From: Escherichia virus TH47
Length of the DNA: 64,000 nucleotides
Reading direction: 5' to 3' (one strand)
Sequence record: MT446416.1
A program made the translations under genes and the position numbers. A model generated the notes under the pieces. That model was not told where the DNA came from and did not search any database. It saw nothing but the letters and a program-made list of their open reading frames with translations. Positions 19,129 to 27,971 of this stretch are shown here, piece after piece. The first letter of the stretch is position 1, and every line of letters starts with the position of its first letter.

Positions 19129-20568
19129 TTACATATTTTCTTCTGCAAATTCTGCTAGTGGTGAACGAACGACACCTTCTAGTTCGATTACACGACAGCC
19201 GTCCCAGTTTTTAAATTTCTCAACAACATATGTTAAGCCGCTGTTAACTGGGCTAATGAATTTACTATCAATCTGTGCCAAGTTTCCAAGAATAATCACT
19301 TTGCAGTTCATGCCAGCACGAGTAAGGATTGTCTTAGCCTGAGCAGGTGTGATGTTCTGAAACTCATCCACAACCAGAATGGTGTTGGTAAATGAACGAC
19401 CGCGAATGAAGTTCAATGCTTTGAACTGAATAACATTACGCTTGATTATTTCCTCAATACTACCTTGTGGTGATGCATCATCTTTATGTAAGAATTCCAA
19501 AGCATCCAATGCAGGGCCACAATGTGGTAGCATTTTTTCCATTTCAGTGCCTGGTAAGAAACCGATTTCGGCCCATTGTGAATCTTGTGGTTTTGAGAAC
19601 ATAATACGGTCGTATTTCTTCTTCTCAAGAACCAATTCAAGTGCAGTCGCAATGGTAATTAGCGTTTTACCAGTACCAGCAGAGCCTAGCAGTACTGTTA
19701 GATGAACATCAGGATCTAGAATACTGTTGATTGCTAGTGCTTGCTGAATATTCTTAGCCTTGATATCCCACACTTTAGCACGTAAAGCAACTGATTGTCC
19801 AACGTCCTGGAATACAAGAATATCTTCTGGTGTTAAAGTACCGTCGTCTTCTTCAATTGCAGATTGACCTTCGTACACAAATAGAACATCAGCATTATCA
19901 TATAGGTAATCACCGATGCAAACATTTTGTGGCATGATATGTTCAATCAAGCTTTTAGGAATGTAGTGATACAAACGGCGACCAACTTGTTCAGATTGGA
20001 TAGACACATCAGTTAGATTGCTATACACATCCCAAAAATCTAGGTCTAGGTGATGTTGACCAATGTGAATCAAATCACTATCACCAATCACGATATCATG
20101 ACGGTAATCTTGAACTTCTACCCCGTAGCTTAGAGCCTTGATACGCATGTTGATATCACGGGTAACAAGTACTGAATCAGTTGCTAATGCTACTAAAATG
20201 ATTTTATCATCTGGTACTGTGCTTTTTAGAAGAGTTTGAACTTTCTCTTCGTCGCCAGTAGTACGAATTAGTGCTTCAGCTTCTTCGCTTGTAATAACAA
20301 ACAATTTGCTTTCAGGACTCATATTAGTATGAACATCGGCAATATTAACACCAGTACTACTAATTTCTTCATGTGATGCATCAGAAAGGATTGCTTCAAT
20401 GTTACGGATTGCAACACGAGCATCACGGGAAACATCCACATTACGACTTTTGATTGAATCCAATTCTTCAAGTACTGTGAACGGTAGAATGATAGCTGCT
20501 CCATCAAAAGCAATGGTAGCATTTGGATCAGATAGTAGTACGTTTGTGTCAATTGTATATTTTTTCAT
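19129..20568 (-). CDS. phoH: PhoH-like ATPase with N-terminal PIN domain
   Basis: Walker A VLLGSAGTGKTLIT in the C-terminal half; PIN-like acidic N-terminus (IDTNVLL...). Confidence 0.8.
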   Translation of the reverse strand: MKKYTIDTNVLLSDPNATIAFDGAAIILPFTVLEELDSIKSRNVDVSRDARVAIRNIEAILSDASHEEISSTGVNIADVHTNMSPESKLFVITSEEAEALIRTTGDEEKVQTLLKSTVPDDKIILVALATDSVLVTRDINMRIKALSYGVEVQDYRHDIVIGDSDLIHIGQHHLDLDFWDVYSNLTDVSIQSEQVGRRLYHYIPKSLIEHIMPQNVCIGDYLYDNADVLFVYEGQSAIEEDDGTLTPEDILVFQDVGQSVALRAKVWDIKAKNIQQALAINSILDPDVHLTVLLGSAGTGKTLITIATALELVLEKKKYDRIMFSKPQDSQWAEIGFLPGTEMEKMLPHCGPALDALEFLHKDDASPQGSIEEIIKRNVIQFKALNFIRGRSFTNTILVVDEFQNITPAQAKTILTRAGMNCKVIILGNLAQIDSKFISPVNSGLTYVVEKFKNWDGCRVIELEGVVRSPLAEFAEENM

Positions 20569-20629: not shown

Positions 20630-20932
20630 TTACATGCTCGGTTCGTATTCAACATAACATCTTGAACCACGAGCCTTTTCCTCCCAGCATTCCTGGTAAA
20701 CTAGTTGACCAATTGATACTGGATCTCTTGATAACCCATTACGAACTTCACCAGTACTGGTTTTATAAGTAAATGAGCATTTATTTTCATTACATTGACC
20801 TAATCCCGTTACAGTCGCTGTATTGTAATGAATATTATAACGTTTAGTGTTCTCATGATATGAACTGAACCACAGAACACCTATACCTAACAGTGTTGTG
20901 CAAATAAGACTCTTGATATGTGTTGAAATCAT
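20630..20932 (-). CDS. hypothetical protein with N-terminal hydrophobic (signal or anchor) segment
   Basis: 100-aa ORF. Confidence 0.45.
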   Translation of the reverse strand: MISTHIKSLICTTLLGIGVLWFSSYHENTKRYNIHYNTATVTGLGQCNENKCSFTYKTSTGEVRNGLSRDPVSIGQLVYQECWEEKARGSRCYVEYEPSM

Positions 20933-21249
20933 AGTGCATTAAACCCATTGGTTAAGTAAGTTTCAATATTAACTTTTCCAACTGGATTACTACTATGTAC
21001 ATAGTATTTAAATGGTTCTTTAATATTATGCTCAAACATATAATCAATTAGAAATTTGGCAAAAGTGTATCCAGTTTTCTCATCTGTACTCAAGTCACCC
21101 AAGTCATGGTCAAATGAGACAAATGCTGGAATTCCATTTTTGATTACGTATTCACATGCACTTTCGTAGTCACGACACAATACCATCTCTTGGTCAGGAT
21201 AATATTTTTGATAATCGCGAATATCATCCAAGAACATTGAGTACGACAT
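20929..21249 (-). CDS. hypothetical protein
   Basis: 106-aa ORF. Confidence 0.5.
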   Translation of the reverse strand: MSYSMFLDDIRDYQKYYPDQEMVLCRDYESACEYVIKNGIPAFVSFDHDLGDLSTDEKTGYTFAKFLIDYMFEHNIKEPFKYYVHSSNPVGKVNIETYLTNGFNAL

Positions 21250-21258
21250 TTTAAACTC

Positions 21259-21810
21259 CTATAGATAGCTGATTAGTAAGTTTTCTTTTTGTACAAGATA
21301 CTCCAATTCTTGTTTCGCAGTTCCGATGAAGTTCTGTGTCATAAGATTATTATATCCTGCTTCTCGATTTTGTCCCTTAGAATAACGTGAGATGTGACAT
21401 AAATTTACACCCGCCACCTCTGCACTAGCATGTTTGCCATATGCATAATTATCACGAAGTTTTTTAAGTTCAGCATAAGTCATTTCATAACTATAGCTAT
21501 GGGTGTGTCCCTCTGGAAACAATTCAAGTGATTTTAATGGAGACAGGCGACTTTTGTCAATGATATAGTTCATTTCTTCTTGAACTTCACGCTGTAACGC
21601 ATCTTCTAATGACTTATCAGTACTTTCAACTGTTCCACCACATGCACCCAACAATCCATCCCAACGCACTTGTAGGAGTACTAAGTTAACCACTGGAATA
21701 TCATTTAGTTCATAATCAGCGTATGGGGTACATTCTTTTGCATAAAAGAAACAGAATACAAAATTTGCACGTTTCCCCATTTGCCCCAGTGGTACTTCAG
21801 CTTTACTCAT
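21259..21810 (-). CDS. Nudix-hydrolase-like protein
   Basis: GGTVE...REVQEE resembles the Nudix box (G-x5-E-x7-REUxEE) but the spacing is not canonical. Confidence 0.4.
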   Translation of the reverse strand: MSKAEVPLGQMGKRANFVFCFFYAKECTPYADYELNDIPVVNLVLLQVRWDGLLGACGGTVESTDKSLEDALQREVQEEMNYIIDKSRLSPLKSLELFPEGHTHSYSYEMTYAELKKLRDNYAYGKHASAEVAGVNLCHISRYSKGQNREAGYNNLMTQNFIGTAKQELEYLVQKENLLISYL

Positions 21811-22559
21811 CGCATTCGTTCCTTAATTATAGTTTCAACCTGTGGAATTGCTTTCGTCGCAGGTTTGATGACCTTCTCATTAAAAAGAAAATCATTATCA
21901 TTTTTTCGGATGTTCACATTTACACTATAGCATGGAAGTGCACCAGCTAGTCTGGACCATACCAGTACTGTATCACTGCTTCCAATAACTACAACTGTAT
22001 CATTTTCGGTGAGACTTTTCAACACTTCATTTCGTTCTTCATAAATGGGGAGACGTACCCCATCAACGTAGCGATGGTACTCACCAATCATCACTACATT
22101 TGGTTTTGCAAAAACATCAGCTTTAGGGATATATGGTTCATAACCACAATTAATGACATTGTAATCATCAGTATTAATAGAAAAGTTCTCAATTACTTCA
22201 CATAGATTTCCGTGTAGTTTGAGTTCGGTTCCACCAATTCTAGTATATAGATCATCCATATTAGAAGTCATGTGTAAAAAACAATCACCATACAAATCTT
22301 CTAATGATTTAATAAAGTAATGCATTTCATTAGGATGACATTCTCCTAATTTTACACGCAATGTATTATAAAATGAATGAACTACATGATACTTAGAACT
22401 AAGTCGTGCAATGTTACAAACATCATTAATTTTGAAATTGTCCCACAACCCATCATCAAAGCGGAATGGTTCCATCCCGCTCTCAACTGAAAGACCTGCC
22501 CCTGAAATTATAAGTAATCTTTTGTTCCCAGCATTTTGTATAAATTTATCTGATATCAC
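21807..22559 (-). CDS. SIR2-family (sirtuin-like) protein
   Basis: ISGAGLSVESGMEPFR near the N-terminus matches the sirtuin GAGIS-x-ESGIP-x-FR NAD-binding motif; downstream LHG. Confidence 0.65.
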   Translation of the reverse strand: MISDKFIQNAGNKRLLIISGAGLSVESGMEPFRFDDGLWDNFKINDVCNIARLSSKYHVVHSFYNTLRVKLGECHPNEMHYFIKSLEDLYGDCFLHMTSNMDDLYTRIGGTELKLHGNLCEVIENFSINTDDYNVINCGYEPYIPKADVFAKPNVVMIGEYHRYVDGVRLPIYEERNEVLKSLTENDTVVVIGSSDTVLVWSRLAGALPCYSVNVNIRKNDNDFLFNEKVIKPATKAIPQVETIIKERMR

Positions 22560-22568
22560 ATTTACTCC

Positions 22569-22769
22569 TTATATAAAAAGTATCAAGTTTAATACTAAAA
22601 ATACAATGATAGCAATATGATAGACATACATCCACTTATTGTGTCCATGTTTATTACCATTCCTGAATTCTCGGTATAAACATTTAGTGTGATTGTATAA
22701 CACCACACAAATAAACACAACTATGAAACAAAAAATCCACTCGTAAATTATGTATGCCATCAGATACAC
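22569..22769 (-). CDS. small membrane protein (two predicted TM helices)
   Basis: 66-aa hydrophobic ORF. Confidence 0.4.
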   Translation of the reverse strand: MYLMAYIIYEWIFCFIVVFICVVLYNHTKCLYREFRNGNKHGHNKWMYVYHIAIIVFLVLNLILFI

Positions 22770-22791
22770 TCTCTCTTTATAATTATTATTC

Positions 22792-23385
22792 TCAGTATTT
22801 CAAAATATCAAACTCTGGACTAACGCTTGTTACATTATCACTAACAATTTTGAAAATAGACTCAACACGTTCATGTAACTGAACATTGGTTTCTTCTTGA
22901 ACTTCAATATATGCTGACATGGATGCAATTGCATGATAAGTCCCACTTCCGACAGCAGTAATTTGTGTTTTAGGTTGCAGTACTGAAAAGTCTTCTTGAA
23001 CTTCATAAATTGTGTGATTATGAAGGATGATGAACTGACCACCACCAACATCTTGTGAAGCATCACGAGCACCCCATTCATCTTTGAACATTTGACGAAT
23101 GATAGGAATAACTTTCAGTACTAGATACTGCGAAAAGGTTTCTCCTGCAACTTGTTCTGGTAGAGTTAGGTTGTAATTCAACAACTGCCCCATGCGGAAC
23201 GATGTAGTGTACCCTAACGCCATTACTTCTTTTGTGCGAGTAAGACCATCCTCATTGAGTTTAATGAACTCTTTCTCAAACACTTTAGGCTCAGTTTGAA
23301 CTGCTTTAGTGAATCCATTGCTTCCTAATTTATCACCAGCGATGAAGGAAGATGTGCCATTTGTGTGAGCGATAATACAAGTCAT
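22792..23385 (-). CDS. HslV/proteasome-beta-like Ntn-hydrolase
   Basis: Start moved to the ATG at 23383-23385 (AAGGAG Shine-Dalgarno, ATGA overlap with the upstream stop), giving an N-terminal Met-Thr; ...TAVGSGTYHAIA resembles the HslV GSG segment. Confidence 0.5.
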   Translation of the reverse strand: MTCIIAHTNGTSSFIAGDKLGSNGFTKAVQTEPKVFEKEFIKLNEDGLTRTKEVMALGYTTSFRMGQLLNYNLTLPEQVAGETFSQYLVLKVIPIIRQMFKDEWGARDASQDVGGGQFIILHNHTIYEVQEDFSVLQPKTQITAVGSGTYHAIASMSAYIEVQEETNVQLHERVESIFKIVSDNVTSVSPEFDILKY

Positions 23386-23642
23386 GAAATAACTCCTTGT
23401 GCAAAAAGTGCCGTATATAACCAGTATATCAGCAACCCTAGTGTAAGTAAACATGCTCCATAAGAAATCGATAGAACATAGTAAATTCCTGCTCCGAACT
23501 TGGATGCAAATTTGTGTGTACTGGAATCCATAAAACCACGTTTGTAGTCTTTATAGATGAAACATGTTAAAACTAATGTAATGCAATATACAATAGTTGT
23601 TGCATAAAAAACAAGAGATGTTAAGTTTTGTAAATTTGTCAT
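23382..23642 (-). CDS. small membrane protein
   Basis: 86-aa ORF with hydrophobic helices. Confidence 0.45.
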   Translation of the reverse strand: MTNLQNLTSLVFYATTIVYCITLVLTCFIYKDYKRGFMDSSTHKFASKFGAGIYYVLSISYGACLLTLGLLIYWLYTALFAQGVIS

Positions 23643-23736
23643 AGTTTATACACTCCTAGTGTATGTTAACTTATAACAAAGGGGATGTACCACTTTATCA
23701 TCCTCTTATTATAATATTATTATTTTGTATCTAATA

Positions 23737-24345
23737 CTAATGAATGATACTACCTAATTCGAACAACTGCTCTGGTGTAAGTCTTACAACTTCATCACCA
23801 CGAACTTTACTAACCTCCACTAACAATTCTGGAGGAATACCATTCGCTGCATATAACGCAAATAGAACACCAACCTTAGTTGATAGCTGTTCTGCAAAAA
23901 TAGTCATTTGGCGAACTGTTATGTATGTGTCATCACTATTTCGTGCTTTACTTTCGATTGACACATTATGTAGACCTAGAATTGAGTCCTTCATCATGTA
24001 TCTGTTTTCTATATTAGCACTAAAGAATGCGATAGTGCAAGAAGAATTACAATATCTTTCAACAATAATTGTTAAATTGTTATCATTGACAAAATTTCCT
24101 AGTGCCACTCCCGCATCAAAATCACCACCTGGTGACGTAATGATGATAGTGTCAAATGGGTGTGTTTCTCTAAAAACCATCAAACGGTTTACAGTATTTT
24201 CAGTTAAAGTTGAAATGAACTGAACTGTCTGTTTAGATTCATCATATCTAATGATACTTTTTCTTTCATCACCTGCACTTGCAGGAAAGTTAATTAAGAA
24301 AATAATAATAATAGATTGGATGATTTCTTTACATAATCGTACCAC
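23737..24345 (-). CDS. secreted ClpP/S49-superfamily protease-like protein
   Basis: N-terminal signal-peptide-like segment ending ASA; IITSPGGDFDAGVALGNFV resembles the ClpP/SppA SPGG segment. Confidence 0.45.
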   Translation of the reverse strand: MVRLCKEIIQSIIIIFLINFPASAGDERKSIIRYDESKQTVQFISTLTENTVNRLMVFRETHPFDTIIITSPGGDFDAGVALGNFVNDNNLTIIVERYCNSSCTIAFFSANIENRYMMKDSILGLHNVSIESKARNSDDTYITVRQMTIFAEQLSTKVGVLFALYAANGIPPELLVEVSKVRGDEVVRLTPEQLFELGSIIH

Positions 24346-24472
24346 TGGTTAACCCTCTTAGTTGATTGTTGATTACATAAATAATATTATAGGAAGATTT
24401 AACTTAAGTCAAATTGTTTTTTTATCACTTCACACATTCCCTCGCAGAATCACCCCACATTTGTACCTTCTT

Positions 24473-24502
24473 TTGTATGATTATATCACACTAATGTATA
24501 AT
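24473..24502 (+). promoter_or_regulatory. candidate sigma70-like promoter on the plus strand (TTGTAT-N18-TATAAT)
   Basis: Read in the 280-bp intergenic region; would start a transcript of about 120 nt ending at the 24605-24627 terminator. Confidence 0.25.
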
Positions 24503-24604
24503 GTCTATGCTTTTGTTAACAAATAACGTGGTAGTACTGAACTCGTTGTTGGTTCTAAGAGTTTTCCTGAAATTCAAACAAGTTGTGTACTAACAAAAGA
24601 AAAA

Positions 24605-24627
24605 GGAGCCTTATGGCTCCTTTTTTT
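24605..24627. terminator. bidirectional rho-independent terminator
   Basis: GGAGCC-TTAT-GGCTCC hairpin with TTTTTTT on the plus side and TTTTCTTTT on the minus side. Confidence 0.55.
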
Positions 24628-24892
24628 ATTCTACCGTATTAAGTTTCTGACAAATCATGTCAGCTTCAACACGGTCTTTATAATAAATGGTAAAACCAAA
24701 TTTACCAGTTACTTTATACTCTTTACAAGTTAAACAATTTACAATGTAGTACTTGTTGTTTTGTGCTGAAAATCGTACTTCATGATTACGCATCACAGGT
24801 TGAGTAGTATTATCATTTAATACAATCATCACTAAAAGTACAAGAATCACAACTGCAAATGGAATACCTAAAATCAAGAAAGTCAAAGTCAC
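24626..24892 (-). CDS. small membrane protein
   Basis: N-terminal TM helix (LTFLILGIPFAVVILVLLVMIVL). Confidence 0.45.
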   Translation of the reverse strand: MTLTFLILGIPFAVVILVLLVMIVLNDNTTQPVMRNHEVRFSAQNNKYYIVNCLTCKEYKVTGKFGFTIYYKDRVEADMICQKLNTVE

Positions 24893-27275: not shown

Positions 27276-27971
27276 TTAGACCCACTCTTCCACGCCACCG
27301 CGACGTTTGACGAGATACTTACCTTCTTCGTTGCGTGGACCAAGGATGATACCATCAATGAAACCATGTTCACCGTATTCGAGTGCTTCTTCAGCGTTCA
27401 ACCACAGGTCACGGTCAGCATCTTTCAGTAGTTGTTCGTGTGATACACCAACTGCTTCAGCAATTTCTTTCGTCAATAGTGTGTTCAATGCGTCAGAGTG
27501 TTTCAAAGAAATCTTCTGATCGGTAATCAGACCCTGAGTACCGGAACTCACTTGGTGACACATGAAGTAAGAACGCTTACCACCTAGACGGAAACCTTTA
27601 GTTCCAACTACTGATTGTGTATAGCAACCCATTGATGCTGCATAACCCATTACTACTGTACGGATAGGAGATACACAAGACTTAGCAATGTCAGCGATAC
27701 CCAAACCTGCGTGTACTGAACCACCAGGAGAACTAATGTAGAAGGTAATTGGTTCAGAACCCTGAGAATCCAACCACACCAATTGTTGCTTGATGATATG
27801 TGCCATTTGGTCATTGAAGTCAGTATCAAGGAAAATGATACGGTCTTGCATCATACGAGATGCTAGGTCATAAGTACGTTCTGCACCATTAACTTTTTCA
27901 ACTACATAAGGAATAGAAATGTTGCGAACTTCACCACCAGCATAACCACCAAAATTGAATTGTTCAACCAT
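27276..27971 (-). CDS. clpP: ATP-dependent Clp protease proteolytic subunit (ClpP-like)
   Basis: RIIFL...ISSPGGSVHAGLGI...GYAASMG...MCHQ matches the ClpP fold and Ser/His catalytic motifs; AGAGGA Shine-Dalgarno. Confidence 0.85.
   Translation of the reverse strand: MVEQFNFGGYAGGEVRNISIPYVVEKVNGAERTYDLASRMMQDRIIFLDTDFNDQMAHIIKQQLVWLDSQGSEPITFYISSPGGSVHAGLGIADIAKSCVSPIRTVVMGYAASMGCYTQSVVGTKGFRLGGKRSYFMCHQVSSGTQGLITDQKISLKHSDALNTLLTKEIAEAVGVSHEQLLKDADRDLWLNAEEALEYGEHGFIDGIILGPRNEEGKYLVKRRGGVEEWV

Follow-up and report, generated by a model that had tools for sequence, protein, structure and literature searches.

The 64,000-nucleotide stretch of Escherichia virus TH47 DNA analysed here (sequence record MT446416.1, hereafter the window) carries on its minus strand a gene for a proteasome/HslV-family protein and a gene for a ClpP-fold protein with a predicted export leader, interleaved with two genes for small membrane proteins. 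We judge with moderate confidence that the two larger proteins are separate accessory hydrolases acting in different compartments, interleaved with two inner-membrane hairpins, and that the four genes do not constitute a dedicated machine. The source is an Asteriusvirus-like jumbo coliphage, 98% identical over 6 kb to the jumbo coliphages vB_Ec-M-J, WPEC5, Ecwhy_1, fEgEco12 and CMSTMSU; the Asteriusvirus phages 121Q and PBECO4 show about 78% identity to the window. The four open reading frames (ORFs) had been singled out in an initial annotation made from the letters alone, and all were found on the minus strand where it had placed them, the last with a refined start:

23737..24345, minus strand: ClpP-fold serine hydrolase with an export leader (predicted), 202 amino acids (aa), GTG start after AGAGGG (from profiles, model and alignments)
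23382..23642, minus strand: tm86, an 86-aa membrane protein with two hydrophobic helices (from hydrophobicity and 121Q gp474)
22792..23385, minus strand: proteasome/HslV-family N-terminal nucleophile (Ntn) hydrolase, 197 aa (from profiles, model and alignments)
22569..22760, minus strand: tm63, a 63-aa membrane protein forming a two-helix hairpin (from hydrophobicity, the fEgEco12 annotation and a 121Q homolog)

The two enzymes occur independently of each other: RaK2-type phages have the ClpP-like gene only, and the HslV-like gene is found without a ClpP-like gene in T5-like, Aeromonas and Vibrio phages. In RaK2, XaC1 and Hallingskeid, the slot after dCMP deaminase likewise holds the ClpP-like gene, but with neither the HslV-like gene nor the membrane genes, and it is followed there by cytidylyltransferase and nicotinamide phosphoribosyltransferase genes. 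The HslV-like family was found by tblastn in 197 GenBank phage records, from jumbo coliphages, Salmonella phages, many T5-like Epseptimavirus, Aeromonas, Vibrio, Psychrobacter and other phages, and a pattern scan of IMG/VR yielded 341 confirmed loci. We compared the ORFs lying within 3 kb in 88 HslV-like loci (80 IMG/VR loci plus GenBank loci), corresponding to 69 groups at 80% identity. The commonest neighbour families were PhoH, an HD-domain protein and a portal-like protein, each in 6/69 groups, followed by dCMP deaminase (5/69). No neighbour family was present in more than 6 of these 69 lineages, and no AAA+ unfoldase was recurrent among them. Only two lineage types of 69 have a ClpP-fold gene no more than 1.5 kb away from the HslV-like gene, most loci lacking one within 6 kb, and small membrane proteins were immediate neighbours in 8/97 cases versus a background of 43/792, which is no enrichment (Fisher p = 0.25).

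The initial annotation had regarded the four genes as an unusual module and proposed that conservation of the quartet be checked in related phages. This part was for the most part not supported: the enzymes were already annotated in 121Q, the ClpP-like gene stands alone in RaK2, XaC1 and Hallingskeid, and the neighbourhood analysis rules out the ClpP-like and HslV-like genes as a generally conserved pair. The possible role in anti-defence raised there found no echo in PADLOC, which returned no match for any of the four proteins; PADLOC holds models of defence systems, not of anti-defence systems, and this is weak evidence either way.

Some functional link between the genes nevertheless keeps a minority chance. 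In one such scheme, which we consider unlikely, the four genes would form an envelope-spanning unit, the hairpins tethering or regulating the Thr-protease at the inner membrane and the ClpP-fold enzyme working on the periplasmic side; such a unit could serve superinfection exclusion, envelope remodelling or counter-defence. Several observations do weigh against complete independence. Translation of tm86 and of the HslV-like gene is coupled, the stop codon of the former overlapping the start of the latter as ATGA, and 121Q has the identical four-base overlap. Small two-helix membrane ORFs, unrelated to those of the window, flank the HslV-like gene directly upstream and downstream in a 70%-identical jumbo phage, and a membrane protein lies directly upstream of the Eps7 HslV-like gene. 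A terminator and promoter-like sites precede the ClpP-like gene (described below) and suggest a single transcription unit. Finally, the two protease types are adjacent in a second, distant lineage (L005, 4107-4757; L006, 4103-4933), in the order PhoH, leaderless ClpP-fold gene, HslV-like gene, and it is only through these two loci that pairing survives as a minority rival. However, the ClpP-fold partner in L005 and L006 lacks a leader, the membrane proteins have no detectable homology between lineages, and neither their adjacency nor that of the ClpP-fold gene extends beyond the frequencies given above. In our judgement, the two enzyme genes are accessory genes independent of each other, placed in an accessory slot of variable content. 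L005 and L006 represent the only other lineage found with both protease types adjacent, and the L006 ClpP-fold copy keeps a D-C-G-S-M-C elbow.

The HslV-like protein

The reading frame of the HslV-like gene is open upstream to position 23454. We took the conserved ATG at 23385 as its start because 33 out of 33 homologs begin Met-Thr-Cys and because this ATG overlaps the tm86 stop codon. A homolog search with the protein returned 72 clusters, and across 33 of these homologs, aligned over a range reaching down to 25% identity, M1, T2, C3, D18, K34, Q67, G146, G148 and V188 were invariant. The strings MTCIIAH and AVGSGTYHAIA, quoted in the initial annotation, are exact in 22792-23385.

Family assignment depended on profiles, since searches of solved structures with single sequences gave marginal or no matches for the proteins studied here. 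The HslV-like protein matched PHROG 1040, 'peptidase HslV family', with an E-value of 2.6e-22, whereas no Pfam model, Pfam Proteasome included, matched at E ≤ 1, and the NCBIfam HslV models NF003964 and TIGR03692 scored 19.1 and 18.1 bits, far below their cut-offs of 137 and 157.75. When solved structures were searched with a profile of the family, HslV was returned first, followed by proteasome beta subunits and BPH, in a register placing MT-C on the MT-T of HslV, AGD on AGD and pKVF on kKVR. An hhalign comparison with E. coli HslV (95.7% probability) gave the same register and placed GSG on GSG, the segment being Gly146-Ser-Gly148 in the window protein. T2, D18 and K34 fall on HslV in both alignments, so that numbering after removal of the methionine is exactly Thr1/Asp17/Lys33, the catalytic set of the proteasome superfamily (PMC8665760). 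The proposal of an HslV-like Ntn-hydrolase with an N-terminal threonine and a GSG region was therefore borne out on proper alignment. Thr2, encoded at nucleotides 23380-23382, would become the N-terminal nucleophile once the methionine is gone. A connectase-like ligase was considered and rejected, the sole match in a single-sequence search of solved structures having E ~0.9 over a non-catalytic stretch.

A single-chain AlphaFold model of the protein reached a mean predicted local distance difference test score (pLDDT) of 92.9. HslV was its best Foldseek match in the PDB by E-value (4e-10), with 14-19% identity, whereas BPH was the best match by template modelling score (TM-score) and root-mean-square deviation (rmsd), at 0.69-0.76 and ~4-5 Å. 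The model contains four helices (residues 63-72, 84-104, 149-166 and 170-184). The loop following the second (~residues 101-117) is acidic and is the sole low-confidence part. A beta-hairpin of ~17 residues is inserted right after Lys34 (~residues 37-56) in the jumbo-phage clade only, at the S3/S4 position where connectase bears its specificity element (PMC8665760).

Taken together, the HslV-like protein is very probably a threonine hydrolase of the proteasome family, with an activity that we infer from its conserved residues, and it is not an HslV ortholog. In E. coli HslV, Met1 is removed by methionine aminopeptidase, and the host enzyme would likewise take Met1 off the phage protein and expose Thr1, which would act in the cytoplasm together with Asp17, Lys33 and the Gly-Ser-Gly loop. 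The protein would most likely assemble into rings resembling those of HslV or BPH and cleave specific proteins of the host or the phage. The annotation of the sister phage fEgEco12 shows no AAA+ gene over ~20 kb to either side of its ortholog, 42 kb in all. As no phage unfoldase is encoded nearby, the HslV-like protein would act either alone, as BPH does, or with host HslU.

The second possibility can be taken further, to a replacement proteolytic core for host HslU that would redirect host ATP-dependent proteolysis during infection. The host bacteria of phages carrying HslV-like genes do encode HslU, no phage unfoldase is encoded nearby, and the closest solved relatives by E-value are HslV proteins. 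We nonetheless find this rather improbable, given scores of ~19 bits against HslV equivalog cut-offs of 137-158, the low identity to HslV structures, and a TM-score and rmsd that favour BPH, an enzyme that needs no unfoldase (PMC8665760). The acidic, low-pLDDT loop at ~101-117 moreover exceeds the short pore loop of HslV, which is tied to regulation by HslU (PMC8665760).

Two HslV-type genes can occur in one phage. Aeromonas phage 2L372X has two tandem genes annotated 'peptidase HslV family' (L013, 4001-4552, and the next gene), and Salmonella jumbo phage pSal-SNUABM-04 is reported to have two HslV genes and no HslU (PMC7823757). These paired genes suggest paralogous or hetero-oligomeric use in some phages. 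The family as a whole is abundant, including in T5-like Epseptimavirus, and has an unusually sharp signature in its invariant Met-Thr-Cys start.

The ClpP-fold protein and its wider family

The initial annotation had described the 23737-24345 product as a ClpP/SppA-fold protein with a signal peptide. The ClpP fold, the leader and the conserved SPGG, Ser and His stood up to analysis; membership of S49/SppA did not. The segment ITSPGGDFDAGVALG which it had quoted is present exactly in 23737-24345. The protein matched PHROG 26024, 'protease', with an E-value of 8e-69, but scored barely above the gathering threshold of Pfam CLP_protease (PF00574; 21.0 versus 20.2 bits) and only 19-22 bits on NCBIfam ClpP models with cut-offs of 228-251. 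Its close relatives are found only in 121Q/RaK2-type jumbo phages. In 18 aligned sequences SPGGD (71-75), C99, S101, C103, G124-L-H126, G159 and P171 are invariant, and Lys157 is conserved only within the close phage group. A profile alignment with ClpP placed 'CnSaC' over 'AASM', which holds the catalytic Ser, and 'LGLHN' over 'MIHQ', which holds the catalytic His; the corresponding window residues are Cys99-Asn-Ser101-Ser-Cys103 (nucleotides 24037-24051) and His126 (23968-23970). The invariant pair is therefore Ser-His, not Ser-Lys, and no Peptidase_S49 model was among the Pfam and NCBIfam matches of the protein or its relatives, which leaves S49/SppA membership unsupported.

A single-chain AlphaFold model (pLDDT 85.5) consists of a ClpP core and a detached N-terminal helix at residues 2-23, joined by a disordered hinge (pLDDT <50 at residues 23-27). 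All 50 PDB matches listed by Foldseek were ClpP, with TM-scores of 0.6-0.7, and in a fold search of a viral structure library the matches were limited to the RaK2 ortholog and generic ClpP-fold proteins. For both enzymes, structure prediction and profiles thus led to protease folds and not to other families. The leader (residues 1-24, nucleotides 24274-24345), called from hydropathy and comparison, has basic residues, a 13-residue hydrophobic core and the sequence FPASA|G, and a hydrophobic leader is likewise present at the N-terminus of the RaK2, Hallingskeid and XaC1 orthologs. The mature window protein has exactly two cysteines, the invariant Cys99 and Cys103. In CMSTMSU (MH494197.1, 49154-49754) the ortholog aligns in three pieces at 88.9% identity, whereas in sister phages it aligns in one piece at 96.5-98%; the broken alignment could reflect frameshifts or sequencing errors in the record.

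These features point to a Sec-type leader that would deliver the 202-aa protein to the periplasm, where it would be freed by signal peptidase I at ASA|G or kept anchored by its leader. There Ser101 and His126 would serve it for serine hydrolysis without ATP, the SPGG loop providing the oxyanion hole, and a stabilising disulfide between the two invariant cysteines across the nucleophile elbow is a reasonable inference. Three observations speak against parts of this scheme. Some orthologs lack a clean AxA site (FPASQ, FPSH), which leaves leader cleavage uncertain; the leaderless relative in L006 retains the CxSxC elbow, which weakens the case for a disulfide; and the residue at the position of ClpP Asp171 varies among orthologs (D/N/E/K/S), so that it does not qualify as a classical triad protease and its activity could be a different one.

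This missing Asp would also fit a scheme in which one or both enzymes are catalytically dead scaffolds or decoys, for instance to sequester host HslU or a periplasmic substrate. However, the nucleophile and general-base positions are invariant at 18-25% identity in both families, as would be anticipated for active enzymes, and we regard this scheme as very unlikely.

Sister phages carry other labels for the gene, namely 'head maturation protease' and 'ATP-dependent Clp protease proteolytic subunit' in fEgEco12, WPEC5 and Turkey3, which would make it a head maturation protease or a subunit of cytoplasmic ClpP. A weak match to NF045542 goes in the same direction, but reaches 15.7 bits where the cut-off is 120. 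A leader peptide is present on the protein, and its gene sits among metabolic genes and not in a head module. Neither enzyme (gp345c, gp346c) is present among the 62 proteins of the phAPEC6 virion proteome, where the T4-type prohead protease is gp227c (PMC7247149), and the absence from the virion together with the presence of gp227c leaves the 'head maturation protease' label unsupported. A canonical cytoplasmic ClpP is furthermore already encoded in the window (27276-27971, minus strand; PF00574 E 1.3e-41; AASMG Ser, CHQ His and DRD Asp) and is 96% identical to its 121Q ortholog. Either assignment consequently appears extremely improbable. With this canonical ClpP, the phage has three genes of self-compartmentalising-protease type (ClpP, the exported ClpP-fold protein and the HslV-like protein), in addition to a T4-type prohead protease elsewhere.

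An exhaustive profile search with the ClpP-like protein collected 11,298 cluster representatives at E ≤ 0.001, and 767 at E ≤ 1e-10; some of the weaker ones may be ordinary ClpP proteins. In 40 of the best relatives, 18-34% identical to the window protein, S71, G73, G74, C99, S101, C103 and H126 are invariant, and in nearly all 40 the N-terminus is basic and then hydrophobic, some having a lipobox-like L-x-x-C. The family signature, all of which the window protein has, is a leader, an S-x-G-G loop, a Cys-x-Ser-x-Cys elbow and an invariant His ~25 residues further on. No Pfam or NCBIfam model is specific to this CxSxC...H family, whose members gave only weak matches to ClpP, Clp_rel_HeadMat, NfeD and SDH models. 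In species-representative genomes, the motif CxS[SA]CANY[VIL]F occurs at 575 confirmed chromosomal loci, with carriers including Undibacterium, Massilia, Duganella, Alteromonas, Vibrio, Aliivibrio, Vogesella and Dehalococcoidia. We kept 80 of the bacterial loci for comparison, and 73 of these 80 relatives have a hydrophobic N-terminal segment. No conserved neighbour was detected among them, the commonest being generic sensor kinases and LysR-type regulators, and a C39 ABC exporter lies nearby in 5/80. We found nothing relevant in the literature on COG3904 or on a periplasmic ClpP-like protease, and, among studies of 121Q, PBECO4, phAPEC6 and Sharanji, no paper dealing with the protease and membrane genes described here.

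Membrane proteins, divergence and the surrounding locus

Both small ORFs, which the initial annotation had taken for flanking membrane proteins, do encode membrane proteins, each a two-helix hairpin with a basic loop between the helices (~residues 11-29 and 56-81 in tm86; residues 3-21 and 45-63 in tm63). The tm86 protein, whose ortholog is annotated as gp474 in 121Q, had no family match in Pfam, PHROG or NCBIfam searches. For tm63, the likely start is the ATG at 22760 (63 aa) and not the GTG at 22769, because fEgEco12 is annotated in this way and because a homologous 64-aa ORF is open in 121Q. This two-helix homolog (NC_025447; L002, 5068-5262, minus strand) is unannotated in the RefSeq record, and the phAPEC6 record is devoid of annotation for both small membrane genes.

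Comparison of the window with 121Q, in which the synonymous rate (dS) is near saturation and ratios of non-synonymous (dN) to synonymous rates are approximate, separates two classes of genes. The exported ClpP-like protein, tm86, tm63 and an anchored 88-aa protein (24626-24892) are 50-66% identical, with dN of 0.23-0.39 and dN/dS of 0.21-0.27, whereas the flanking cytoplasmic enzymes are 84-96% identical, with dN of 0.03-0.09 and dN/dS of 0.02-0.07. The dN of these four envelope-directed proteins is thus 4-6 times that of the cytoplasmic enzymes. The HslV-like gene has a dN/dS of 0.067, as low as that of PhoH, and the ClpP-like gene and both small ORFs have values of 0.21-0.24, indicating that all four ORFs are real genes under purifying selection; the gene for the anchored 88-aa protein is likewise under such selection.

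A bolder hypothesis, which we advance tentatively and hold to be improbable as a whole, would make the exported ClpP-fold protein, as used by jumbo phages of the RaK2/121Q group, the phage member of a large class of hydrolases, not described so far, that have a ClpP fold, work in the periplasm independently of ATP and are recognised by a leader, a Cys-x-Ser-x-Cys elbow and a Ser-His dyad. It would cut an envelope or periplasmic target soon after infection, candidates being a receptor, an envelope-stress component or a defence component, and the approximately five-fold faster protein divergence than in neighbouring enzymes would reflect an arms race between host and phage at the envelope. If true, a ClpP-fold enzyme would operate outside the cytoplasm with neither ATP nor an unfoldase, in a family that is widespread in Proteobacteria and has no curated model, and this family is potentially the more useful lead of the two. 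Should the ClpP-like protein be only an accessory protease, the finding is an annotation refinement that corrects the 'head maturation protease' label and adds a small gene to 121Q.

Window DNA is ~34% G+C and its minus strand holds almost all genes. In the direction of transcription, the gene order is dCMP deaminase, the anchored 88-aa protein, the ClpP-like protein, tm86, the HslV-like protein, tm63, Sir2, a Nudt16-like Nudix hydrolase, a cREC-type receiver domain, a 100-aa protein and a PIN-PhoH protein. Two features precede the ClpP-like gene:

24600..24625, minus strand: intrinsic-terminator-like hairpin with an 11-bp stem and a T run, ending the upstream transcription unit (from sequence)
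24384..24507, minus strand: two sites resembling sigma-70 promoters, in the 280-bp spacer that precedes the ClpP-like gene (consensus matches only)

The first promoter-like site (24507-24480) reads TAGACA-16-TATAAT with a TG and the second (24412-24384) TTGACT-17-TAATAT. The region contains 50 such matches versus a shuffled expectation of 40 +/- 6, not clearly above. A strong terminator-like signal followed by promoter-like sites suggests that a new transcription unit begins upstream of the ClpP-like gene, and the placement of these genes in an early region, as the initial annotation had it, is plausible on the same signals. At this place 121Q (NC_025447; L002, 6995-7500) has two plus-strand genes, gp472 and the Ig-domain virion protein gp471, between the 88-aa and ClpP-like genes, whereas the lineage of the window has only the 280-bp spacer (24346-24625) with the terminator and promoter-like sites.

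Directly downstream of the four genes and all on the minus strand lie Sir2 (21807-22559), the Nudt16-like Nudix hydrolase (21259-21810) and a cyclic-phosphate-processing receiver, cREC_REC (20929-21249). In RaK2-type phages the slot held here by Sir2, Nudix and cREC_REC is occupied by cytidylyltransferase and nicotinamide phosphoribosyltransferase, and the region downstream of the protease genes looks like a variable slot for cargo related to NAD or ADP-ribose. The 100-aa protein (20630-20932, minus strand) has a hydrophobic N-terminus, five cysteines and no family match; 121Q labels it 'membrane protein', and a further exported product of the same gene string may be encoded here. The PhoH-like protein (19129-20568, minus strand) is a 479-aa fusion of PIN_4 and PhoH, and its phAPEC6 ortholog, gp341c, was found in purified virions with 8 peptides and 31% coverage (PMC7247149).

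Comparison with known systems

The direct orthologs of the two enzymes, 121Q gp475 and gp473 and RaK2 ORF497, are labelled 'protease (ClpYQ-like)', 'protease (ClpP-like)' and 'protease', and 121Q also labels the HslV-like ortholog 'peptidase HslV family'. These records consist of labels only, with no leader, wider family, catalytic-residue analysis or 63-aa gene. The protease labels in sister phages are thus already known, as are phage proteasome homologs as a described class. New here are the predicted export leader, the large putative CxSxC...H ClpP-fold family, the invariant Met-Thr-Cys signature, the lack of a conserved partner among the sampled sequences, and the faster non-synonymous divergence of the envelope-directed proteins.

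The HslV-like protein resembles HslV (ClpQ) in its fold, its similar size, the N-terminal Thr right after Met with no propeptide, and its equivalents of Asp17, Lys33 and GSG. It differs from HslV by its 14-19% identity, its scores far under the equivalog cut-offs and the lack of a Pfam Proteasome match, as well as by an invariant Cys after the Thr, a longer acidic loop after helix 2, a hairpin insert after Lys33 in this lineage and the lack of an HslU gene nearby. Phage-borne proteasome homologs (PPH, AAH and CPH) were first described by Fuchs, Alva and Lupas in 2021 (PMC8665760). Like these and BPH, to which its TM-scores are best, the window protein is a compact, propeptide-less group-I proteasome homolog, encoded by tailed phages with no unfoldase. 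PPH has ~140 residues and lacks helix H2 (PMC8665760), whereas the window protein has 197 residues and a helix (84-104) at the H2 position, a distinction drawn from the published description only.

The ClpP-like protein shares with ClpP (MEROPS S14) the fold, the SPGG oxyanion loop and an aligned nucleophile Ser and general-base His. It differs in its leader, which would send it to a periplasm where no AAA+ partner is possible, in its Cys-x-Ser-x-Cys nucleophile elbow, in the lack of a conserved Asp and in its score of 21 bits on PF00574, and a canonical ClpP is encoded separately by the phage. The dyad of NfeD and SppA is Ser-Lys, in contrast to the invariant Ser-His of the ClpP-like protein, which has no S49 model match, and NfeD1b_N and SDH_protease appeared among its relatives only as weak matches, all below cut-off. 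What it would have in common with NfeD (PH1510), SppA/S49 and the SDH-type proteinase is a ClpP fold at work outside the cytoplasmic AAA+ context.

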